A stretch of DNA of 64,000 bases from Escherichia coli (GCF_050920415.1 NZ_CP169309.1); one strand, 5' to 3'; shown: positions 32,981 to 51,796, counted from the stretch's first letter. The notes: generated from the letters alone by a model not told the origin. Program-made: numbers and translations.

Positions 32981-33832
32981 ATGCTGAAGTACAGTAAAAC
33001 GCCAGGCATCTTTAAATTAGAAGGTAATCGGCTCGGACGCCCCTACCATCGCCTGCCGACCCTGTTTACGGGGAATTTTGACGTGATTGATTCGCATCTC
33101 GGCAGCTACTTTCTCAAAAAGCATCGCAGCAATATCACTTTAAAAAAGATTGGCTGCGAAATGGATATTATTAATAAAAACGCCGAGTTGATGGTTTCCC
33201 AAGTCGGGCATCTGGCATTTGATATCGATCGCTCCTTATTGTTAATGCTGCTGGGCAATTTTTATGGTCTGGAGTCTTCTCTTGAAGAGGCAAAAGCCCA
33301 TAATGGCCTGCCGACCAAAACCGAAACACGATTAAAGAACCGACTCGCGCTGGATATCTGCACGCTGATATTTAATCTGCAAACCTCCGGTATTGCGCTG
33401 AAATTAAAGCTGGACAGCAGCACGGTAATTACCCACTGGGCGTATCAATTAACCTTTACCCTCGCGGGCGATGAAGAGAGCCGTTTTCGTATTTTGCTCG
33501 ACGATGCCCACACCGATTTTATTTTAAATCTGATCCGCCACAGTGAGCACAGTAAACCGCAGCAGGTGGCGAAATCCGTCAACAAGCCGGCACTGATTAA
33601 AGAGATCATCCGCTCTCTGCCGTTGACCCTGAACGTCAAAATCGCCGAGCTGTCGATGAATGTTGCCGATCTGGCGCAGATAAAAGCCGGAGATATTTTA
33701 CCCATCTCGCTGGGAGAAACGTTCCCGGTGGCGATTGGGCAATCTGAATTATTTAGCGCCCTGATTGTGGAAGACAAAGACAAACTGTTTTTGTCGGAGC
33801 TGGCGGGCAAAAATGAGAATAGCCATGAGTAA
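32981..33832 (+). CDS. lfiM: Flagellar motor switch protein FliM-like
   Basis: 283 aa; C-terminal FliN-like SpoA region (…AGDILPISLGETFPVAIGQSELFSALIVEDKDKLFL…). Confidence 0.85.
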   Translation: MLKYSKTPGIFKLEGNRLGRPYHRLPTLFTGNFDVIDSHLGSYFLKKHRSNITLKKIGCEMDIINKNAELMVSQVGHLAFDIDRSLLLMLLGNFYGLESSLEEAKAHNGLPTKTETRLKNRLALDICTLIFNLQTSGIALKLKLDSSTVITHWAYQLTFTLAGDEESRFRILLDDAHTDFILNLIRHSEHSKPQQVAKSVNKPALIKEIIRSLPLTLNVKIAELSMNVADLAQIKAGDILPISLGETFPVAIGQSELFSALIVEDKDKLFLSELAGKNENSHE

Positions 33833-34196
33833 GCAAGAAGATATTTTAACCGGGGATTTTGGCCTCACCGATGACGTTGCGCCTGTCACGAAACCCGCCG
33901 ACGCCGACACGCTGGTCACTCGCCTGGAAGACCGCTTTTCCGACTCGATGACGCTGCTGAAACGCATTCCGGTGACCTTAACGCTGGAAGTGTCGTCGGT
34001 GGAAATCATGTTAGCCGACCTGCTGAACATCGACGACGACACGGTGATTGAGCTGGATAAACTCGCCGGGGAGCCACTGGATATCAAAGTGAACAATATC
34101 CTGCTGGGCAAAGCGGAAGTGGTAGTGGTCAACGAGAAGTACGGCCTGCGCGTGCTGGAGTTTAACACCCGCGATATCAACGACCTGGCACCATGA
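33813..34196 (+). CDS. lfiN: Flagellar motor switch protein FliN-like
   Basis: SpoA domain (…VTLTLEVSSVEIMLADLLNIDDDTVIELDKLAGEPLDIKVNNILLGKAEVVVVNEKYGLRV…). Start uncertain: 33813, 33825 or the ORF track's 33765. Confidence 0.8.
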   Translation: MRIAMSKQEDILTGDFGLTDDVAPVTKPADADTLVTRLEDRFSDSMTLLKRIPVTLTLEVSSVEIMLADLLNIDDDTVIELDKLAGEPLDIKVNNILLGKAEVVVVNEKYGLRVLEFNTRDINDLAP

Positions 34197-34945
34197 AACG
34201 CCGCGCTCAACTGACGCTGGGCCTGGCGCTGCTGGCGCTCGCGCCGCTGGCAATCGCCCAGGGCGGTGATATTGCGCTGCTTAACGTGGTCACTCATGGC
34301 AACACTCAGGAATACAGCGTCAAAATCCAGGTTCTGATTCTGATGACCCTCGTCGGTTTGTTGCCGACGATGGTGCTGATGATGACCTGCTTTACGCGCT
34401 TTATTATCGTGCTTTCACTACTGCGCCAGGCGCTGGGGCTGCAACAAACGCCGCCAAACCGCATTCTGATTGGCATTGCGCTCTCCCTCACCCTGCTGGT
34501 GATGCGCCCTGTCTGGCTGAATATTTACGACCACGCGGTGGTGCCGTTCGAAAACGATCAGATTACCCTGACCGATGCGCTAAGCACCGCCGCGACGCCG
34601 CTGAAACGCTTTATGCTGGCGCAGACCGACAAAAAAGCGATGGCGCAAATCATGACCATCGGTGGCGCGAAGGGCAATGCCGCCGACCAGGATCTCTCCA
34701 TCGTGGTGCCCGCCTATGTGCTGAGCGAGCTGAAAACCGCTTTCCAGATTGGCTTTATGATTTACATCCCGTTTCTGGTTATCGACCTGATTGTCGCCAG
34801 CGTATTGATGGCGATGGGGATGATGATGCTGTCGCCGCTGATCGTTTCGCTGCCGTTTAAACTGATGCTGTTTGTGCTGATCGACGGCTGGTCGCTGACC
34901 ATCGGCACGCTCACCACCAGCATTCGCGGGCTGGGGCTGGGCTGA
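34193..34945 (+). CDS. lfiP: Flagellar export apparatus protein FliP-like
   Basis: 250 aa; signal peptide and conserved FliP membrane core (…MTCFTRFIIVLSLLRQALG…); ATGA overlap with the fliN stop. Confidence 0.9.
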   Translation: MKRRAQLTLGLALLALAPLAIAQGGDIALLNVVTHGNTQEYSVKIQVLILMTLVGLLPTMVLMMTCFTRFIIVLSLLRQALGLQQTPPNRILIGIALSLTLLVMRPVWLNIYDHAVVPFENDQITLTDALSTAATPLKRFMLAQTDKKAMAQIMTIGGAKGNAADQDLSIVVPAYVLSELKTAFQIGFMIYIPFLVIDLIVASVLMAMGMMMLSPLIVSLPFKLMLFVLIDGWSLTIGTLTTSIRGLGLG

Positions 34946-34947
34946 TT

Positions 34948-35220
34948 ATGTTGACCGTAGACGTAGCCGCCGACATTGTCGCCAGCGGCATTAAAGTAGT
35001 GATTTTGCTGGTTTCGGTACTGGTGGTGCCAAGCCTGCTCGTTGGCCTGCTGGTGAGCGTGTTCCAGGCAGTGACGCAGATTAATGAGCAGACACTGAGC
35101 TTTTTACCGAGGCTGATTGTCACGCTGGTGGTGCTGGGGGTGTGCGGTAAATGGATGATTATCCAGTTGCATGATCTCTGCATTCATCTGTTTACCCAGG
35201 CCGCGTTGCTGGTGCATTAA
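34948..35220 (+). CDS. lfiQ: Flagellar export apparatus protein FliQ-like
   Basis: 90 aa, two hydrophobic helices (…FQAVTQINEQTLSFLPRLIV…). Confidence 0.85.
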   Translation: MLTVDVAADIVASGIKVVILLVSVLVVPSLLVGLLVSVFQAVTQINEQTLSFLPRLIVTLVVLGVCGKWMIIQLHDLCIHLFTQAALLVH

Positions 35221-35221
35221 G

Positions 35222-36004
35222 ATGCGCACAAGCGACGTTACGCAACTGATGGATCTGGCGCTGGGGCTGTGGTTTCCCTTCGTGCGCATTATGGCGTTTC
35301 TGCGCTATGTGCCGGTGCTGGATAACAGCGCCCTGACCGTGCGCGTGCGGATTATTTTGTCGCTGGCGCTGGCAATCATCATCACGCCGTTGATCCCCCA
35401 TCCCATTCCCCACGACCTGCTTTCGCTCAATAGCCTGATCCTGACGGTGGAGCAAATTTTATGGGGCATGTTATTCGGGCTGATTTTTCAGTTCCTGTTT
35501 CTGGCGCTACAGCTGGCCGGGCAAATTCTCTCGTTCAATATGGGGATGAGCATGGCGGTGATGAACGACCCGAGCAGCGGCGCATCGACCACCGTACTGG
35601 CGGAGCTAATCAACGTTTACGCGATCCTGCTGTTTTTTGCCATGGACGGGCATCTGCTGCTGGTGAGCGTGTTGTACAAGGGCTTCACCTACTGGCCGAT
35701 TGGCAACGCCCTGCATCCGCAAACCCTGCGCACCATCGCGCTGGCCTTTAGCTGGGTGCTGGCGTCGGCATCGCTGCTTGCGCTGCCGACCACTTTTATC
35801 ATGCTGATTGTGCAGGGCTGCTTTGGCCTGCTCAACCGCATTGCGCCGCCGCTGAATCTCTTTTCACTTGGCTTTCCCATCAACATGCTGGCAGGGCTGG
35901 TCTGTTTTGCCACCCTGCTCTACAACCTGCCGGATCACTATCTGCATCTGGCGAATTTTGTGTTGCAGCAGCTCGACGCGCTGAAAGGTCACTATGGCGG
36001 ATAG
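35222..36004 (+). CDS. lfiR: Flagellar export apparatus protein FliR-like
   Basis: Start taken at the ATG just after the fliQ stop (MRTSDVTQLMDLALGLWFPF…), 260 aa, polytopic membrane protein. Confidence 0.8.
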   Translation: MRTSDVTQLMDLALGLWFPFVRIMAFLRYVPVLDNSALTVRVRIILSLALAIIITPLIPHPIPHDLLSLNSLILTVEQILWGMLFGLIFQFLFLALQLAGQILSFNMGMSMAVMNDPSSGASTTVLAELINVYAILLFFAMDGHLLLVSVLYKGFTYWPIGNALHPQTLRTIALAFSWVLASASLLALPTTFIMLIVQGCFGLLNRIAPPLNLFSLGFPINMLAGLVCFATLLYNLPDHYLHLANFVLQQLDALKGHYGG

Positions 36005-37133
36005 CAGCAGCGAAGAAAAAACAGAGAAACCTTCGGCGCAAAAGCTGCGTAAAGCGCGTGAAGAGGGACAACTGCCGCGCTCGAAGGATATGGGGCTGGC
36101 GGCGAGCCTGTTTGCGGCGTTTGTGGTGATCTCCAGCAGCTTCCCGTGGTATGCCGATTTTGTACGCGAGAGTTTTATCAGCGTGCATCAGTACGCGCAG
36201 GAGATTAATAACCCGGACGTTATCGGCCAGTTTCTGCGCCATCACCTGTTAATTCTCGGCAAGTTTATTCTCACCTTGCTGCCGATGCCCGCCGCCGCAC
36301 TGCTCTCCTCACTGGTGCCTGGCGGCTGGCTGTTCTTGCCGAAAAAAATCCTCCCGGATTTCAGCAAAATCAGTCCGTTAAAAGGCATTGGACGGCTGTT
36401 CTCCAGTGAACATCTTGCGGAAACAGGCAAGATGACGGCGAAGTCGGTGGTGGTGCTGGTGATGCTGTGGATTAGCCTGCGCAATAACTTTGCCGCCTTT
36501 CTCGGCCTGCAGGCGCTGCCGTTCAAACTGGCGATGAATGAGGGTTTGTCGCTCTACGCCAGCGTGATGCGCAACTTTGTCATCCTGTTTATTTTCTTCG
36601 CGCTTATCGACGTGCCGCTGGCGAAAGCCCTGTTCACCAAAGGGCTGAAGATGACTAAGCAGGAGCTGAAAGAAGAGTACAAAAATCAGGAGGGCAAGCC
36701 GGAAGTGAAAGCGCGTGTGCGGCGGCTGCAACGGCAGCTGGCGATGGGGCAAATCCGCAAAGTGGTGCCGAAAGCCAACGTGGTGATCACCAACCCGACC
36801 CACTACGCCGTGGCGTTGCAGTATGACCAGTCGCGCGCCGCCGCGCCGTTTGTAGTGGCAAAAGGTACCGATGAAATCGCCCTCTATATTCGTCAGGTCG
36901 CCACTGAAAATCAGGTGGAAGTGGTCGAGTTCCCGCGGCTGGCGCGCTCGGTTTACTACACCACCCAGGTGAACCAACAAATTCCGTTTCAGCTTTACCG
37001 GGCCATCGCCCACGTTCTGACCTACGTCCTGCAAATGAAACACTGGCGCGAGGGCGCACAGCCGCGCCCGGCCCTGAACAGACATATTTCCATTCCCAAA
37101 GAGGTGCTTAAACTGGATGGCGAAAACAACTAA
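35994..37133 (+). CDS. lfhB: Flagellar export switch protein FlhB-like
   Basis: 379 aa; N-terminal …EKTEKPSAQKLRKAREEGQLPRSKD… and the autocleavage NPTH motif (…VVITNPTHYAVAL…). Confidence 0.9.
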   Translation: MADSSSEEKTEKPSAQKLRKAREEGQLPRSKDMGLAASLFAAFVVISSSFPWYADFVRESFISVHQYAQEINNPDVIGQFLRHHLLILGKFILTLLPMPAAALLSSLVPGGWLFLPKKILPDFSKISPLKGIGRLFSSEHLAETGKMTAKSVVVLVMLWISLRNNFAAFLGLQALPFKLAMNEGLSLYASVMRNFVILFIFFALIDVPLAKALFTKGLKMTKQELKEEYKNQEGKPEVKARVRRLQRQLAMGQIRKVVPKANVVITNPTHYAVALQYDQSRAAAPFVVAKGTDEIALYIRQVATENQVEVVEFPRLARSVYYTTQVNQQIPFQLYRAIAHVLTYVLQMKHWREGAQPRPALNRHISIPKEVLKLDGENN

Positions 37134-39210
37134 ATCGTTCCTCGCGCTGCTGCGCGGCGGTAATCTCGGCGTACCGCTGGTGATCCTGTGTATTCTGGCG
37201 ATGGTTATTCTGCCGCTGCCACCTGCGCTGCTGGATATTCTGTTCACCTTCAACATTGTGCTGGCGGTGATGGTGCTGCTGGTGGCGGTGTCGGCGAAAC
37301 GACCGCTGGAATTCAGCCTGTTCCCGACCATTTTGCTGATCACCACCTTAATGCGCCTGACGCTCAACGTTGCTTCTACGCGCGTGGTGCTGCTGCACGG
37401 GCATCTCGGCGCGGGCGCGGCGGGTAAGGTGATTGAGTCGTTTGGTCAGGTGGTGATTGGCGGCAACTTTGTCGTCGGTTTCGTGGTGTTTATCATCCTG
37501 ATGATCATCAACTTTATCGTCGTCACCAAAGGGGCCGAGCGTATTTCCGAGGTTTCTGCCCGCTTTACCCTGGACGCGATGCCCGGCAAACAGATGGCGA
37601 TTGACGCCGATCTTAACGCCGGGTTGATCAACCAGGCGCAGGCGCAGACCCGCCGCAAAGATGTTGCCAGCGAGGCCGATTTCTACGGCGCAATGGACGG
37701 GGCATCGAAATTTGTGCGCGGGGATGCCATCGCCGGGATGATGATTCTGGCGATCAACCTGATTGGCGGCGTTTGTATCGGGATCTTCAAATACAACCTG
37801 AGCGCCAATGCCGCCTTCCAGCAGTATGTCCTGATGACCATTGGTGACGGGCTGGTAGCGCAGATCCCTTCCCTGCTGCTCTCTACCGCGGCAGCGATTA
37901 TCGTCACCCGCGTCAGCGACAACGGCGATATCGCCCATGATGTGCGCCACCAGCTGCTGGCAAGCCCGTCGGTGCTCTACACCGCCACCGGGATTATGTT
38001 CGTGCTGGCGGTGGTGCCGGGAATGCCGCACTTCCCGTTCCTGATGTTCAGCGCCCTGCTTGGTTTTACCGGCTGGCGAATGAGCAAACGCCCGCAGGCG
38101 GCGGAGGCGGAAGAGAAAAGCCTCGAAACGCTGACCCGCACCATCACCGAAACCAGCGAGCAACAGGTCAGTTGGGAAACCATTCCGCTGATCGAGCCCA
38201 TTAGTTTAAGCCTCGGTTACAAGCTGGTGGCGCTGGTGGACAAAGCGCAGGGTAATCCGCTCACCCAGCGGATTCGCGGCGTGCGGCAGGTGATTTCCGA
38301 CGGCAACGGCGTGCTGCTGCCGGAGATCCGCATTCGGGAAAATTTCCGCCTCAAGCCCAGCCAGTACGCCATTTTCATCAACGGCATTAAGGCTGATGAA
38401 GCGGATATTCCGGCGGATAAGCTGATGGCTCTGCCCTCCAGCGAAACCTACGGCGAGATTGACGGCGTGCTGGGGAACGACCCGGCGTATGGGATGCCGG
38501 TGACCTGGATTCAGCCCGCGCAGAAGGCGAAGGCGCTGAATATGGGGTATCAGGTGATCGACAGCGCCAGCGTAATTGCCACACATGTGAATAAGATTGT
38601 GCGCAGCTATATTCCTGATTTGTTTAACTATGACGATATTACTCAGCTGCATAACCGTTTGTCGTCGATGGCACCGCGCCTGGCGGAGGATTTGAGTGCG
38701 GCGCTGAATTACAGCCAGTTGCTGAAAGTGTACCGGGCACTGCTGACCGAAGGCGTTTCCCTGCGCGATATCGTCACCATCGCCACCGTGCTGGTCGCCA
38801 GTAGTACCGTCACCAAAGATCATATTCTGCTGGCGGCCGATGTGCGCCTGGCACTGCGGCGCAGCATTACCCATCCGTTCGTTCGCAAGCAGGAGCTGAC
38901 GGTGTATACGCTGAATAATGAGCTGGAAAACCTGCTGACCAACGTGGTGAATCAGGCGCAACAGGCTGGCAAAGTGATGCTCGATAGCGTGCCGGTGGAC
39001 CCGAATATGCTCAACCAGTTCCAGAACACGATGCCGCAGGTGAAGGAGCAGATGAAAGCCGCAGGTAAAGACCCGGTGCTGCTGGTGCCGCCGCAGCTGC
39101 GCCCATTGCTGGCGCGTTATGCGAAGTTGTTTGCGCCGGGGTTGCATGTGCTGTCGTATAACGAAGTGCCGGACGAGCTGGAGTTGAAGATTATGGGGGC
39201 GTTGAGTTGA
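37117..39210 (+). CDS. lfhA: Flagellar export gate protein FlhA-like
   Basis: 697 aa; conserved N-terminal membrane domain (…FPTILLITTLMRLTLNVASTR…) and large cytoplasmic C-terminal domain. Confidence 0.9.
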   Translation: MAKTTKSFLALLRGGNLGVPLVILCILAMVILPLPPALLDILFTFNIVLAVMVLLVAVSAKRPLEFSLFPTILLITTLMRLTLNVASTRVVLLHGHLGAGAAGKVIESFGQVVIGGNFVVGFVVFIILMIINFIVVTKGAERISEVSARFTLDAMPGKQMAIDADLNAGLINQAQAQTRRKDVASEADFYGAMDGASKFVRGDAIAGMMILAINLIGGVCIGIFKYNLSANAAFQQYVLMTIGDGLVAQIPSLLLSTAAAIIVTRVSDNGDIAHDVRHQLLASPSVLYTATGIMFVLAVVPGMPHFPFLMFSALLGFTGWRMSKRPQAAEAEEKSLETLTRTITETSEQQVSWETIPLIEPISLSLGYKLVALVDKAQGNPLTQRIRGVRQVISDGNGVLLPEIRIRENFRLKPSQYAIFINGIKADEADIPADKLMALPSSETYGEIDGVLGNDPAYGMPVTWIQPAQKAKALNMGYQVIDSASVIATHVNKIVRSYIPDLFNYDDITQLHNRLSSMAPRLAEDLSAALNYSQLLKVYRALLTEGVSLRDIVTIATVLVASSTVTKDHILLAADVRLALRRSITHPFVRKQELTVYTLNNELENLLTNVVNQAQQAGKVMLDSVPVDPNMLNQFQNTMPQVKEQMKAAGKDPVLLVPPQLRPLLARYAKLFAPGLHVLSYNEVPDELELKIMGALS

Positions 39211-39241
39211 TTGAGGATTCTTTTCCATACTTTGCAGCACC

Positions 39242-39302
39242 TGACACCATTAATTGACGTCACACTGCAAAGAGACTACGATGACACCATACAATGACGT
39301 CA
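39242..39302 (+). promoter_or_regulatory. Two direct copies of a 21-bp palindrome-containing motif plus a sigma-70-like promoter upstream of the HicA-like gene (candidate operator)
   Basis: tgacaccattaattgacgtca (39242-39262) and tgacaccatacaatgacgtca (39282-39302), each with TGACGTCA; -35 TTGACG at 39254-39259 and -10-like TACGAT at 39277-39282 (17-bp spacer). The second copy overlaps the -10 and ORF start. Confidence 0.45.
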
Positions 39303-39593
39303 TGGATTGATAGTATGATTAAGGTCAGCGCGCTAGGCTCTCGTCATAGAAAAACATTCGACGATGTAATGACGGAGCCGCCAAAATCTGGAATTAAATG
39401 GGATGATGTTGTTGCTCTCATTAAAGCGGTGGGTGGATCAATAAAAAATAACAACGGCTCCAGACGAAAATTTCAGATTGGAACGACCAAATTCAGCACA
39501 CATGAGCCGCATCCAAAGAATGTGATGGATAAAGGCGCAGTAGCAGGTCTTAAGGAGTGGTTTGTTAACTGTGTAGGGGTAGATTATGAATAA
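39294..39593 (+). CDS. HicA-like toxin (mRNA interferase family), putative
   Basis: 99-aa ORF (alternative start 39315); C-terminal half (…NGSRRKFQIGTTKFSTHEPHPKNVMDKGAVAGLKEW…) resembles the HicA pattern as I recall it; 8-nt overlap with the downstream gene. Confidence 0.45.
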   Translation: MTSWIDSMIKVSALGSRHRKTFDDVMTEPPKSGIKWDDVVALIKAVGGSIKNNNGSRRKFQIGTTKFSTHEPHPKNVMDKGAVAGLKEWFVNCVGVDYE

Positions 39594-39942
39594 AGCATCG
39601 AACATTATCACAATTAAAGGTCAACCAGCCGCAGTGACATTTGAAGCCGATATCAACGCATTTCGCGGCAAGTTCCTCAATGTAAACGGTTATTGTGACT
39701 TTGTAGCCACAAGTATTGAGGCATTATATCGTGAAGGCGAAAGCGCTCTGGATGAGTGGATGGCGGATTGTGAAGAGGACGGTATTGCCCCTTTTCGTGA
39801 AGAAGAAGAGCAAAAACGCCTGACGCTTCGTGTGCCGCATCACATCGATTCGCGGCTGACCATCGTCGCCAGACAACATTCCATTTCAAAAAACCAGCTC
39901 ATTATTGATGTCTTAGAACGTGAGTTTTCAGCCCAGATGTAA
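39586..39942 (+). CDS. HicB-like antitoxin with C-terminal ribbon-helix-helix, putative
   Basis: 118 aa; N-terminal HicB/UPF0150-like region and C-terminal RHH-like segment (…KRLTLRVPHHIDSRLTIVARQHSISKNQLIIDVLEREF…). Confidence 0.55.
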   Translation: MNKASNIITIKGQPAAVTFEADINAFRGKFLNVNGYCDFVATSIEALYREGESALDEWMADCEEDGIAPFREEEEQKRLTLRVPHHIDSRLTIVARQHSISKNQLIIDVLEREFSAQM

Positions 39943-39998
39943 ACAGGTCGGATGCCGCGTGGCATCCGACCTGTTGCCAGTTCGTCAATATTACCCAT

Positions 39999-46664: not shown

Positions 46665-47435
46665 GTGCCTGGTTTGAAGATTACGCTTTTGCAGCAACCA
46701 CTGGTGTGGATGGATGGTCTTGCCAACCTGCGCCATTTTGATCGTCAACTGGAAGGTATTACCGGGCGCGATGTGATCGTTCTACCGGAGATGTTTACCA
46801 GCGGCTTTGCCATGGAAGCGGCAGCTTCGTCGCTAGCACAAGATGACGTAGTGAACTGGATGACAGCTAAAGCGCAGCAGTGCAATGCGCTGATTGCAGG
46901 CAGTGTTGCATTACAAACGGAGTCTGGTTCGGTTAACCGCTTTTTGCTGGTTGAGCCGGGCGGCACGGTACATTTTTATGATAAGCGTCATCTGTTCCGA
47001 ATGGCAGATGAGCATCTGCATTATAAAGCGGGCAATGCGCGAGTGATTGTGGAATGGCGCGGCTGGCGTATTTTGCCGCTGGTGTGCTACGACCTGCGTT
47101 TTCCGGTGTGGTCGCGCAATCTCAACGATTATGACCTCGCCATCTACGTCGCCAACTGGCCTGCCCCACGCTCTCTGCACTGGCAGGCATTGCTGACAGC
47201 CCGCGCGATTGAGAATCAGGCGTATGTGGCGGGATGCAATCGCGTCGGCAGCGATGGCAACGGCTGCCATTATCGCGGTGACAGCCGGGTGATTAATCCA
47301 CAGGGCGAGATTATCGCTACTGCCGACGCGCATCAGGCAACGCGCATTGATGCGGAGCTGTCGATGGCGGTGTTAAGGGAATATCGCGAAAAGTTTCCGG
47401 CATGGCGGGATGCGGATGAGTTTAGGTTGTGGTGA
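46665..47435 (+). CDS. yafV: Nitrilase-superfamily omega-amidase YafV
   Basis: GTG start 9 nt after an AGGAG Shine-Dalgarno (256 aa); C-N hydrolase motifs (…VLPEMF…, …RKRHLF…, …VCYDLRFP…). Confidence 0.85.
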
Positions 47436-47464
47436 GTGGGGGTTGTGTTTAGGGCCGGGGAGAG

Positions 47465-47700
47465 TTGGGGTATGACTACGAAAGCCCGCTCTCCTGCGAC
47501 CACTTTTATCATAGGAGTGTGGAAGTGCTTTTCCATCAATCGCGATGACGTCTTTGTCATCTGAAGAATGACATTCACGCATCCGGTTAATAAAGCATTC
47601 GTGAAATTATACTGAACGGATACAAGACATAACTCTAATTATGGTGCCGTGAACAGGATTACCATTTTCAAAATTACGATATTATTTGCAGTAATTATGT
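47465..47700 (-). mobile_element. Degenerate ISAs1-family (H-repeat) transposase remnant abutting the yafV 3' end
   Basis: About 80% nucleotide similarity by eye to 49396-49620; minus-strand translation …[26 protein letters not shown]… matches the transposase fragment at 49323-49781. Confidence 0.5.
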
Positions 47701-47706
47701 TATTAA

Positions 47707-48219
47707 TCATTGTGATATTTCCATCTCTGTGATTAATACCGGATACGCATTTAATTGCAGAGTTTGCACGAAATTATCGCAGATAACTGGCAATAACAAT
47801 AACCCATCAGCCCGCTGCTGTAATACCTCCATTCGTTCTACTGATTCAACATTAACAACCAAACCAAGGGCATTTAGCGATTTAAGGATCTCCAGATGTT
47901 CACTCATCCAGCGCAGAGAAAAAGGATCATCACCAATTATAAAAACAGGCCCCCAGCCGGTTAATAACTGGCGTTTCATTACGGAACCAGGATGAAGTCG
48001 AGTACATATTACAGGAAATACCCCCTGTTGCGATGGTTCCGATGATGTGGATAATTCAGAAATATTTTCCATTGTTAGTGAAGAATTAACATCCATTAAT
48101 AATGGTGAAACAACCTCACTTTCCTTGCTAGTAATGGCTGCACTAATCTGAGAGGAAAATAACAATATTATTACGTATAAACTCATTTTTAACATAACAA
48201 ATTCAATCCGTTTATTCAT
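47707..48219 (-). CDS. Hypothetical secreted/membrane protein, AT-rich
   Basis: 170-aa ORF with N-terminal hydrophobic signal-like segment (MSLYVIILLFSSQISAA); no assignable motif. Confidence 0.45.
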   Translation of the reverse strand: MNKRIEFVMLKMSLYVIILLFSSQISAAITSKESEVVSPLLMDVNSSLTMENISELSTSSEPSQQGVFPVICTRLHPGSVMKRQLLTGWGPVFIIGDDPFSLRWMSEHLEILKSLNALGLVVNVESVERMEVLQQRADGLLLLPVICDNFVQTLQLNAYPVLITEMEISQ

Positions 48220-48285
48220 GTTATAGAATAATGATGCTATAAATCATCATTAATGTTCAATTATTTAATCACACAGTTTAAAAAA

Positions 48286-48789
48286 TCATTGACCAATGTG
48301 AATTGGCAATGTACCACTCAAGTTAAAATCACTGAATATTTTATCAATTTCTCTTGCAGTTTCTATATATTTAACCTCTTTCGTACTTGCATTATAAATA
48401 GCCCAAGCCTCGGGATGGGATGTTCCACCAAACCTTACAAAAAAACTTGATTTCATATTATTATATAAATTAACATCAGGAAAAGGATCTTCTCCAAAAT
48501 TAGTAGTATTGAATAATGAAAGTTCGTATCGCTTAGAAAATTCTATTGGTAGGATAGCTTCACTGCCATCAATAGCATTCATCCAGAGTTTGTTACCATT
48601 ATATTCCAACAATAATCTCTGTTTTGCATGTGTTTTATCTCGTTCTTTAACGACAGCGAATACCTTTTTAACAACCTGCTGTGCGGATGGTCCTATTGTA
48701 TTACCAAAAGATGGCAACCCGATTTTGCCATAAACACTCTCCTGAATGAAATAAATATCCGTTTTATCGGCCTCGACAATATCTACCAT
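48286..48789 (-). CDS. Hypothetical cytoplasmic protein, AT-rich
   Basis: 167-aa ORF; no signal peptide; no assignable motif. Confidence 0.45.
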   Translation of the reverse strand: MVDIVEADKTDIYFIQESVYGKIGLPSFGNTIGPSAQQVVKKVFAVVKERDKTHAKQRLLLEYNGNKLWMNAIDGSEAILPIEFSKRYELSLFNTTNFGEDPFPDVNLYNNMKSSFFVRFGGTSHPEAWAIYNASTKEVKYIETAREIDKIFSDFNLSGTLPIHIGQ

Positions 48790-49101
48790 TTATCCCTCCA
48801 AACAAGACCTGACTCCAGGACAAGAGCATAGTGTGTAGTAAACACATCATGCTCTTGCCCTGACCATTGAAATAACAACTTTCGTTTGTTTACTGTACGC
48901 TGTCTAAATAGCTGCGTGGAATAAAGTTGCACTTTTTATCATCCCTTGTAGAGCAAGATTACGAAAGCCCGCCCCCGCAAGGGCTGACGCGAGGTAGTCT
49001 CTGTCCGCAGCTGCTTTTCACATCTTACATCTTGCCCCTGCCTTGAGTATCTTATCTTTCGTTAAAATATTAATAGCGATCTTCCGTATCCCTGAAAATA
49101 A

Positions 49102-49781
49102 TTATGCTGCATTTCCTCTTCTTATTTTGAAGTCGTCTTTATTCATTACCACTTCCAGATGCCAGTGCAATTTATTCTCCACTTGCCAGTGATTTCGGTT
49201 CGCTGTGGCGAACTTCTCTGCGGTTAAATCAGCAGAAATGCTATAATATCTGACCGTCATTTCGGGATTTTTCTTTTGTTCTGCTATTATTGAGCGAAAT
49301 GAGACTGCCATGCATAATTTCTTCAGCCCTTTCCATTCAAACGTAAAATCAATAAATTCATCAGAGACATGCAAACAATATGAAGACGGATTTTAATGAC
49401 ATAAGTTGCTCCCTTGTGACGAGTTTTATCATAAGAGTGCCGGAGCGTTTTTCCATCAATTGCAATGACGTCTTTATCATCTGAAGAATGACATTCACGC
49501 ATCCGGTTAATAAAGCATTCGTGAAATTTTGCAGGACTGATACATGATACAACTCTGGCAATAGTATCGTGAACAGGAATACCATTTTCAAAATCACCAT
49601 ATTGCTTCAAAAAATCGAGATGAGTTTCCCCGAAATCCTCTATATCTTCCCAGCCTTCTGCACCCGAAATAACGGCGCAAATAGTCAACAGTAGAATATC
49701 CGATAATTTATGCTCCACTTTCCAGGCTTGTCTGTAATCGGGGATAATAGAAATATGTTCCATCAATTTTTTAAGTTCCAT
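49102..49781 (-). pseudogene. ISAs1-family (H-repeat-associated) transposase, internally deleted/frameshifted
   Basis: N-terminal 152 aa ([51 protein letters not shown]…) and a separate 90-aa C-terminal piece (…[30 protein letters not shown]) lie in different frames; the catalytic middle is missing. Confidence 0.7.
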
Positions 49782-49904
49782 TTTGTTCTCCTTAATTATG
49801 TAAGGAGTATTTGATCATGTATAAGCAATAAAAAACAGCTTCAGGTAATGAGGAATATCTCAATTTTTAAACATAAAATGCGAATTATTTAGTACAAAAA
49901 AGCA

Positions 49905-51796
49905 GCGTTAAGTGAGTAGGCCACCGGAACCTCCCCGACAGCCTCTCGCAGAACCGTACGTGAAACTCTCGCTTCATACGGCTCCCGTCAGGCAAACGCG
50001 CTTCCTGGTCCTGCTTTCCAGTGGGCAAACAACTCCGGCTTCTCTTTTGACAGCCTTTCCATTAGCTGACACGCCTTCGTCTTTCTATACCGCAGGGTTT
50101 TATATTTCTTTCTCGCCCACGCAATCAGCGTCAGATTAATATATCTGCATACTTTCTTCATCGCTGATTTGTGGTATCTCGCGTAATAATTCAGCCACCC
50201 CGATATTATCGGATTCAGCCACTTCGCAATATCTTCGAGACTCATCTCCACCCTGCGTCTGATCCACAGTTTCCTGAGTTTTCCAATCATGCCTTTCTGC
50301 GCACGGTTACTCGCCGCCGGGCTGAAACTCGTAAAGAGGTTTCCCCGCCGGTGGTTACGTGCTCTTCGCGCTCTGAACGTATACCCCAGAAAATCAAACT
50401 GCACTGTTTCATGGTTCGCCTGTCGTTCGCTGTCTTTGCAGTAAACTACTTTCGTTTTCTCCGGATGTAATTCCAGTCCACATTCCTGAAAACGTTTTGC
50501 CAGCTTATTCAGTAATTCCTCTGCCTGTTGTTTACTGCCACAATGAATTAATCCATCATCTGCATAACGGCACAGGGAATTTCCGGATAATGTAACGTCA
50601 GCCATTTATCAAACACATAGTGCAGAAATAAATTCGCCAGTACCGGGCTGATGACTCCACCCTGTGGCGTACCTTTATTTCTTTCCTTCAGTGTTCCATC
50701 CGGCATCTGCACCGGCGCTGTCAGCCACCGGCGAATAGACAGTCTTACCCATTTATCCGCACAATGTTTATCTACTGCCCTGAGTAATAAATCGTGGGAG
50801 ATATTATCGAATAACCCTTTAATATCAAACTCAAGACACCAGTCGTATTGCCAGCAACGTTTTCTGGTGACTGCTATTGCATCCAGCGCTGATTTTCCAT
50901 GCCGGTATCCGTATGAATCATTCAGGAAATAACGCTCCACTAATGGTTCAAACGTTACCAGCACCGTCATCTGCGCTATTCGATCGCTTACTGTCGGTAT
51001 TCCTAAAAGTCTTTTGCTGCCATCCTTCTTCGGAATTTCCACCGCACGCACTGGCGGCGGCATCCAGCTTCCCGACGATAACCTGTTCCAGATTTTGTAC
51101 AGATTTCCTTTCAGATCCCGCTCAAAATCTTTCAGCGTCTGGTTATCCACTCCGGCAGCTCCGGCATTCGCCTTTATCCGCCGGTACGCTTCCACCACAT
51201 GCAATTTACTGACCTGAAACGGTTTTGTCTGTTCACACACAGCCTCCTCCTGCCTACAGTTGGGCTGTGATGCAGACTGCCCGACGCTGTCCCTTCGCTC
51301 CACGTTCATTACAAACGCTTCCTCACTACTACGAACAGCTCTGCCCCGGTTTCGCACATCGATACTCTCATACTCATAATTTCGGTTATTTGTATTTCTC
51401 TCTTGAAATTGCGACGACCGGTTCCCGTAGTTCCTGCAAAGAGCCTGATACAGCGTCATGCCTGCTATACACCGGACACCATTCACGCAGCATTCGGAAT
51501 TCACCCGTAAATTAATCCCGGCGGTATCACGAAACCTCCGGTTTTGATGTCACTTAGGACTAACGACGTTTCAACACAGGTTCGGGTTTACTCATCTCAC
51601 TGTATCTCACATAGGATCAGATCTCGTCTGATCGTTCCCCCTGCGCTCACTACCATGGCTCTTTACCACAGCAGCCGGGGTTGTTTGGGACCGACTTCCG
51701 ACAGCAGATCCCGGTGGGCCTGCCACCATCTCTTCACAAGCTTATGCTTATTACATGCAAAACGTCCCGTTTTGCATCTTTGTGCCTACGGCACAC
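49905..51796 (-). mobile_element. Bacterial group II intron (about 1.9 kb)
   Basis: 5' end GTGTG on the minus strand (complement of cacac at 51792-51796); RT/maturase ORF; domain V-like hairpin gagccgtatgaagcgagagtttcacgtacggttc (complement of 49951-49984) just after the ORF stop. 3' boundary is approximate. Confidence 0.65.
49988..51309 (-). pseudogene. Group II intron reverse transcriptase/maturase, frameshifted
   Basis: RT motifs (…GIPTVSDRIAQ…, …TPQGGVISPVLANLFLHYVFD…) in ORF 50548-51504; YADD and maturase domain X (…GWLNYYARY…) in ORF 49988-50605. The two parts are in different frames. Confidence 0.7.

Follow-up and report, generated by a model that had tools for sequence, protein, structure and literature searches.

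The genes of Ssp4, Ssp6 and Tfe1, cargo effectors of type VI secretion systems (T6SS), are located mostly away from T6SS genes (PMC6889166, PMC6617251). The immunity protein Sip4 presents four transmembrane helices (TMH) (bioRxiv 10.1101/2024.11.27.625605). The other known family that concerns this work is DUF2859/TIGR03765, whose typical members are encoded in MPF_G conjugation modules, directly after the lytic transglycosylase gene and before traD. In PAPI-1-type islands and integrative conjugative elements (ICEs) the DUF2859 gene borders a cargo hotspot and is treated as a marker of the ICE backbone (PMC12629846). This was the sole mention of the family that we found in the literature, with no report of it as an immunity family, and the literature on DUF2859/PFL_4695, on the WP accessions given below, on yafV together with T6SS and on DUF805 together with T6SS gave no functional study.

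The window analyzed here is the whole stretch of 64,000 nucleotides from the chromosome of Escherichia coli (GCF_050920415.1, NZ_CP169309.1), and its positions 47400–49400 are 100% identical to strain MFDS1022581 (NZ_CP169399.1). An earlier note on this DNA had described two AT-rich genes, of 170 and 167 aa, lying head to tail on the minus strand with transposase fragments on both sides. Both ORFs were found in that arrangement, separated by a gap of 66–90 nt, and pieces of ISAs1 flank them. The GC content of the interval is 35.0%, versus 51.6% in the window and 53.9% in the adjoining fadE-yafV core genes. The features are the following.

47487–47687, minus strand: left ISAs1 piece, an internal fragment of the transposase found by blastn, 200 bp, 80% identical to ISAs1 positions 297–497
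47707–48219, minus strand: ORF170 (WP_001355139.1), 170 aa, or 162 aa from the probable start at 48195; candidate periplasmic immunity protein
48286–48789, minus strand: ORF167 (WP_000227715.1-type), 167 aa, 18.9 kDa, pI 5.6; candidate small T6SS cargo effector
48794–48799, minus strand: Shine-Dalgarno GGAGGG of ORF167, read from the sequence, 4 nt 5′ of the ATG at 48789
48916–49903, minus strand: right ISAs1 pseudogene, upstream of ORF167, found by blastn against the intact copy of E. whittamii

Starting at the core genome, the genes come in the order fadE, ivy, yafV, the ISAs1 fragment, ORF170, ORF167, the ISAs1 pseudogene and a group II intron (ltrA). Past ltrA runs a T6SS effector array with a Tle1-like lipase, three DUF3304 genes, DUF4123 and VgrG pieces, then IS21, after which the array goes on with VgrG, an M23 peptidase, PAAR and Tae4; beyond it there is a T6SS-1 core that is complete, with tssA-M, two copies of hcp, three of vgrG and two PAAR genes. 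The pair occupies the far end of the T6SS-1 island, which lies between aspV and yafV, and the region is strongly mosaic, with ISAs1, IS1, IS2, IS21, IS630 and the group II intron. PGAP calls ORF167 and ORF170 as CDS in hundreds of genomes. They are real genes and not chance ORFs, because the pairwise dN/dS among four diverged versions, 0.19–0.31 for ORF167 and 0.28–0.59 for ORF170, indicates purifying selection.

Two further observations were made in the window. The ltrA maturase gene (49988–51504) is split in two frames, giving ORFs of 205 and 318 aa, with an indel near 50574, and NZ_CP169399.1, nearly identical otherwise, has it intact at 440 aa, one SNP (33591) and that indel being the differences; the split is either a true frameshift or a sequencing error. 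Upstream of yafL, at about 33400–39950, there is an apparently intact Flag-2 (lateral flagellar) block with fliM/N-like, fliP, fliQ, fliR, flhB and flhA genes, of which K-12 keeps mere remnants, and with it a hicAB toxin-antitoxin pair.

The left ISAs1 fragment begins about 20 nt past the stop of ORF170 and abuts the 3′ region of yafV; its PGAP label is "ISAs1 family transposase, partial, internal stop." The right copy is nearly full, with an internal deletion of about 312 bp, and is labeled "frameshifted; internal stop." Both pieces span the same part of the transposase and therefore correspond to two IS copies, not to one copy split by insertion. A composite ISAs1 transposon was considered and rejected, since the left copy is a short internal fragment and the right one is internally deleted, and also since Superficieibacter has the pair but no ISAs1, and another E. 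coli lineage has just one ISAs1, downstream of it. Because the pair is kept across genera with or without ISAs1, the module predates these copies and is independent of them.

In K-12 the same locus between aspV and yafV is occupied by yafT-ykfM-yafU-yafF only, with no T6SS island, no ORF167 and no ORF170. The earlier note had suggested that the two genes might be K-12 genes near yafF, with yafU and ykfM named for comparison, and for these two it did not hold: blastp of both ORFs against YkfM (159 aa) and YafU (112 aa) gave best E values of 0.57–0.91, and neither protein found a tblastn match anywhere in the window. These two K-12 genes encode unrelated membrane proteins that are absent from the window. 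K-12 yafF is a C-terminal fragment of ISAs1 with a tblastn match of 74% at 49146–48964, inside the right ISAs1 copy, and both are remnants of the same kind of element.

The 170-aa protein had been left with no family, and profile searches supplied one. By its scores ORF170 is clearly a bona fide member of DUF2859/TIGR03765 (PFL_4695 family integrating conjugative element protein), with 120.6 bits in NCBIfam TIGR03765 over model positions 1–105 of 105 (cut-off 59.75) and 99.5 bits in Pfam DUF2859 (PF11072; E 2e-28, cut-off 25). Its start is probably Met9 (48195), the one used by PGAP. The signal-like N-terminus that had been noted corresponds, from Met9, to a Sec-type signal, MLKMSLYVIILLFSSQISA followed by AITS, with predicted cleavage between I-S-A and A; this predicted SPase I site is kept in 3/3 lineages, diverged versions included. 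An S/T-rich linker and the C-terminal DUF2859/TIGR03765 domain come after the signal peptide, and an N-terminal export signal followed by a C-terminal domain is the layout that ORF170 shares with the DUF2859 protein of plasmid pEB102. Sequence and profile searches of the PDB gave nothing significant for ORF170, there is no solved structure for the DUF2859 family, and no match was found in PADLOC or PHROGs.

The closest relatives of ORF170 outside Escherichia are 41–44% identical over the C-terminal 110 residues and are found on MPF_G conjugative plasmids. One of them, the DUF2859 protein of the conjugative plasmid pEB102 (44% identity over 111 aa), is encoded in the order PilL-N, DUF2275, TIGR03759, lytic transglycosylase, DUF2859, restriction endonuclease, TraD and TIGR03747. 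Unlike these typical members, ORF170 has ORF167 as its partner and stands apart from conjugation genes: in the annotation, neither an ICE nor a T4SS gene occurs over about 14 kb toward the core genome and about 45 kb toward the T6SS. It also carries the lineage-specific Cys72 and Cys147, which are invariant in the Escherichia/Superficieibacter proteins, absent from the ICE-type protein of pEB102, and would fit a periplasmic disulfide.

For ORF167 neither a signal peptide nor a hydrophobic segment is predicted, in line with the cytoplasmic protein described before, and its Shine-Dalgarno is strong. No match was found in Pfam, NCBIfam, PADLOC, PHROGs or the PDB by sequence and profile searches. 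A word-indexed search of 5.8 billion proteins returned eight clusters only, all from Escherichia or metagenomes, among which were two diverged full-length variants with 68% and 60% identity. An exhaustive HMM search of 1.84 billion representatives retrieved 42 proteins at E ≤ 1e-3, a family of ~190-aa proteins that are all named "hypothetical protein" in the databases and of which 0/28 match Pfam or NCBIfam. The family has an N-terminal motif, Y-x-I-x-E-x-I-x-x-K-x-G-L-P...G-P-S-x-x-Q, and a C-terminal one, G-x-D-P-x-P-x-x-x-L-Y...F...G-G-x-x-x-P-T-A-x-A-x-Y. The best-conserved polar residues are E17 (82%), D101 and Y109 (98%), and Y132 (88%), the C-terminal values being inflated because sampling was motif-based.

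Modeling with AlphaFold (AF2) on a 3-sequence alignment gave a pLDDT of 43, and the model used was that from the 43-sequence alignment (pLDDT 86.9, pTM 0.81). It is predicted to be beta-rich, with three very long strands (7–22, 32–49 and 57–74), more strands and a C-terminal helix. Foldseek gave no fold match in the PDB or BFVD, and no activity can be named for ORF167 because this confident model matches no toxin or enzyme fold. The long strands, together with a homologue at the usual place of hcp, had suggested a divergent Hcp, which was rejected by the fold searches. Alone in the family, the E. coli-type subfamily does not have the insert of ~30 residues that tips the beta2-beta3 hairpin, besides being acidic (pI 5.6, versus a basic ~9.2 in the other family lineages); taking into account the missing insert and this acidity, its activity may have been lost or changed.

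A second E. coli lineage (OU349849.1) has the pair too, again at the yafV locus, and there the ORF167-like gene is directly upstream of the DUF2859 gene, preceded by TIGR02270-like and thioredoxin-like genes and followed downstream by a nearly intact ISAs1. The arrangement in E. whittamii is that of the window, but with the upstream ISAs1 intact. In Superficieibacter, assigned by the exact match of a flanking GntR protein, the order is the end of VgrG, DUF4123, a 538-aa protein, a 313-aa secreted protein, PAAR, 0.9 kb and the pair, without ISAs1. Identities to the second E. coli lineage and to Superficieibacter are 68% and 60% for ORF167, and 74% and 48% for ORF170. In E. coli, E. whittamii and Superficieibacter alike the pair closes an array of T6SS effector genes, with or without ISAs1, so the module is tied to such array ends in two genera. 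Its distribution is patchy (541–757/5426 E. coli genomes); about 10–14% of the complete E. coli genomes, NC101 among them, carry the pair or its remnants. Decayed versions, with a frameshifted or truncated DUF2859 gene or with IS1 or IS630 insertions, occur in many E. coli lineages.

Some of these strains deserve separate mention. The DUF2859 gene is 1 nt shorter in Nissle 1917, ABU 83972 and M8, which are B2-type, and in APEC strains, and it is annotated only as a fragment, in the three B2-type strains as a 66-aa "PFL_4695 family" product. Strain M8 has an IS630 remnant in place of ORF167, and HTH regulators with a type I secretion/adhesin locus in place of the T6SS island. The plasmid pCP127 of E. 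coli EC93 (NZ_CP061330.1, 39900–52384), typed as IncFIB, carries the chromosomal genes dpaA-yafJ-lpcA-fadE-ivy-yafV and a truncated DUF2859 gene, which is either a plasmid capture of chromosome or a misassembly; NZ_CP010208.1 is similar. Ahead of the pair, the other E. coli lineage and E. whittamii encode a 327-aa protein, the TIGR02270-like protein of ~411 aa (87 bits, below the cut-off) and the thioredoxin-like protein, which is cytoplasmic with a WCxxC motif; this set may be another T6SS accessory or effector set, lost from the window.

Loci of the wider ORF167 family were collected by scanning GTDB species representatives and metagenomes with a degenerate DNA motif, plus earlier look-ups; the 59 loci obtained, grouped into 18 lineages at 60% identity, are biased by the scan toward members with G-x-D-P-x-P...L-Y...F...G-G. 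The enterobacterial genera represented are Enterobacter, Lelliottia, Serratia, Morganella, Pantoea, Erwinia, Brenneria, Rosenbergiella and, by a fragment, Salmonella, and further carriers are Pseudomonas, Burkholderia and uncultured soil bacteria. In 11-12/18 lineages the next gene encodes a protein of 135–171 aa with four predicted transmembrane helices (4-TM), overlapping by 4 nt in some loci and placed upstream in one lineage; these partners are weakly homologous to one another. A gene for a DUF805 membrane protein is usually third, after the 4-TM gene. The resulting orphan module (~194-aa family protein, ~150-aa 4-TM protein, DUF805), whose three products all carry the annotation "hypothetical," was seen in Enterobacter, Serratia, Morganella, Pantoea, Brenneria, Erwinia and soil bacteria, at sites such as ytfP-ppa (Enterobacter), can-hpt (Morganella), after katG (Serratia) and gyrA-ubiG (Pantoea). 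As these housekeeping-gene sites differ across genera, the three-gene modules are taken to be horizontally acquired accessory genes. PADLOC and PHROGs gave no match for the remote homologues or their partners.

Co-occurrence with type VI clusters is seen in part of the family: T6SS genes lie in the available flanks of 3/18 lineages, and the other 15/18 have none. In one linked lineage the remote homologue lies 15 bp after an orphan hcp; in another it is found 89 bp after tssC in a core cluster, followed by the 4-TM partner and small exported ORFs; the third is Escherichia/Superficieibacter. The DUF2859 partner is confined to this last lineage among the 18, and there the switch of partner coincides with the absence of the ~30-residue insert.

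Three observations on individual loci can be added. In the metagenomic tssC-linked core cluster the family gene occupies the usual place of hcp after tssB/tssC, with no hcp in the 16.6 kb seen, and about nine small ORFs (4-TM, signal-peptide/lipoprotein-like, 126-aa and 275-aa) precede ImpE and tssE, which looks like a dense effector/immunity array. The 90%-identity cluster of the Serratia member groups the 193-aa protein with the unrelated 4-TM protein of 149 aa encoded next to it, which is presumably an artefact of clustering and may come from an assembly where the two genes were called as one. In Salmonella Senftenberg NCTC10384 a 119-aa fragment of the family (36% identity) is beside sseK1 on "plasmid 4" (NZ_LN868946.1), which also holds thiCEFSGH and rpoBC and looks like chromosomal sequence.

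The explanation that we favor, and to which we give about even chances, is that ORF167 is a small Hcp-type T6SS cargo effector and ORF170 a periplasmic immunity protein recruited from a conjugative-element family. Together the two genes would make up a single operon-like module at the far end of the T6SS-1 island. ORF167 would be made in the cytoplasm without a signal peptide, loaded into the Hcp tube's lumen, which its 19 kDa would fit, and so fired into neighboring bacteria. In the producer and its kin, ORF170 would be exported by Sec to the periplasm, there to bind and neutralize incoming ORF167, and its recruitment would be from the DUF2859 proteins encoded beside a lytic transglycosylase in MPF_G conjugative elements. 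Since ORF170 is predicted to be periplasmic, ORF167 would act on the cell envelope from the periplasmic side, and, judging from the 4-TM partners found elsewhere in the family, its activity is most likely membrane- or envelope-directed and non-cytoplasmic. The support for this candidate pair is its genomic context, from which we infer secretion, toxicity, immunity and a periplasmic site of action.

Several facts speak for an effector and its immunity protein. The pair is kept together and co-diverges, with both genes under purifying selection; it has the same position at the ends of effector arrays in the window and in Superficieibacter; remote homologues adjoin the orphan hcp and tssC; and the patchy distribution with genus-variable insertion sites is as expected for accessory competition genes. 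A family gene followed by a 4-TM gene has the usual layout of an envelope-acting effector and its immunity gene, Sip4 being an example, and the predicted lack of a signal peptide in ORF167 and the conserved SPase I site predicted in ORF170 are consistent with the two roles. Against this, T6SS genes flank only three of the 18 lineages and most members are orphan three-gene modules, whose conserved third gene (DUF805) is unexplained by a simple pair; the confident model of ORF167 matches no toxin or enzyme fold; the E. coli subfamily is atypical, acidic and insert-less; no report describes DUF2859 as an immunity family; and decayed copies are found in many E. coli lineages. The orphan effector or immunity role raised by the earlier note thus gains from the context (array ends in three species, homologues at hcp and tssC) and is weakened by the location of most members away from T6SS genes.

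The distribution of the family admits a different reading, which we consider unlikely though worth serious attention: the wider family and its membrane partners would be a T6SS-independent module, from which the E. coli pair derived, its adjacency to T6SS being incidental because the aspV-yafV locus is a recombination hotspot. Such a module could be a toxin/immunity or stress module acting by another route, or a three-component envelope function made of a soluble beta-rich protein, a 4-TM protein and a DUF805 protein. The 15/18 lineages with no T6SS gene in their flanks, the conservation of the three genes between housekeeping genes from Enterobacter to soil metagenomes and the high mosaicism of the aspV-yafV region are in its favor. 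However, three independent lineages adjoin hcp, tssC or PAAR, which is unlikely by chance when T6SS genes make up ~1% of a genome, and neither PADLOC nor PHROGs gave a match. Ssp4, Ssp6 and Tfe1 are also mostly encoded away from T6SS genes (PMC6889166, PMC6617251).

It is quite improbable, in our estimation, that the pair is a decaying ICE remnant, a backbone DUF2859 gene with one cargo gene stranded by ISAs1 rearrangements and with no present function. ORF170 does genuinely belong to TIGR03765, the DUF2859 gene borders a cargo hotspot in PAPI-1-type ICEs (PMC12629846), and AT-richness, flanking IS pieces and partial decay in many strains mark the region; but no other ICE or T4SS gene is near ORF170, unlike the context in pEB102, and the nearest ICE-type DUF2859 proteins are just 41–44% identical to it. 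Among the family loci examined none of the ORF167 relatives is in an ICE context, and both genes are under purifying selection and paired across genera with or without ISAs1. Arrays of orphan immunity genes are common at the ends of T6SS clusters, and the position of the pair at the end of an effector/immunity array, with an E. coli-type ORF167 that is small, acidic and without the family insert, would suit two orphan immunity genes, one cytoplasmic and one periplasmic, directed against effectors of other strains, neither being a toxin. This we regard as very improbable: ORF167 homologues hold the effector position, upstream of a membrane partner, in other lineages, and ORF167 and ORF170 co-diverge as a cognate pair.

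If the effector explanation is right, the pair is a new family in a known kind of system, with an unusual immunity protein from a conjugation family, and once confirmed it would add an effector family to the T6SS-1 arsenal of E. coli and, through the partnership with ORF167, give a first clue to what DUF2859 proteins do. The activity of ORF167 could also be new, because its predicted fold matches nothing solved. In a bolder version, to which we attach a rather low probability, ORF167 would found a new-fold family of T6SS envelope effectors across Enterobacterales, Pseudomonas, Burkholderia and soil bacteria, and DUF2859 would be a periplasmic binder or inhibitor co-opted by E. coli as the effector lost the beta2-beta3 insert and the 4-TM partner. 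Were this co-option true, it would give the first functional handle on DUF2859, a protein that a large class of ICEs has in common, and would exemplify protective proteins passing between conjugation and T6SS systems. If the effector pair is not confirmed, the locus would be a tidy case of accessory genes stranded in an IS-rich hotspot.

The comparison with the known cargo effectors was made by description. The Serratia member of the ORF167 family (193 aa, 21.9 kDa) was considered as a possible Ssp3/Tfe1, Ssp4, Ssp5 or Ssp6 and is probably none of the four, as size, partner and locus disagree by description. Ssp6 homologues have 214–239 aa with a 67-aa Sip6 of two TMH, and the ORF167 family differs from them in length, partner and locus; the published list of Ssp6 species includes neither E. 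coli nor Morganella. By the same descriptive comparison Ssp4 is a 35.5 kDa all-alpha protein, in contrast with the beta-rich, unmatched fold predicted for ORF167, Tfe1 (Ssp3) has 183 aa with its immunity gene upstream, and Ssp5 has 29.4 kDa and acts in the cytoplasm. The general plan is nevertheless that of the Ssp4-Sip4 and Ssp6-Sip6 pairs of Serratia marcescens: a protein of ~19–22 kDa lacking a signal peptide is encoded first and a small membrane or periplasmic protein next, the genes often overlapping by 4 nt, in patchy and mostly orphan modules of which a minority lie beside hcp or in T6SS clusters.
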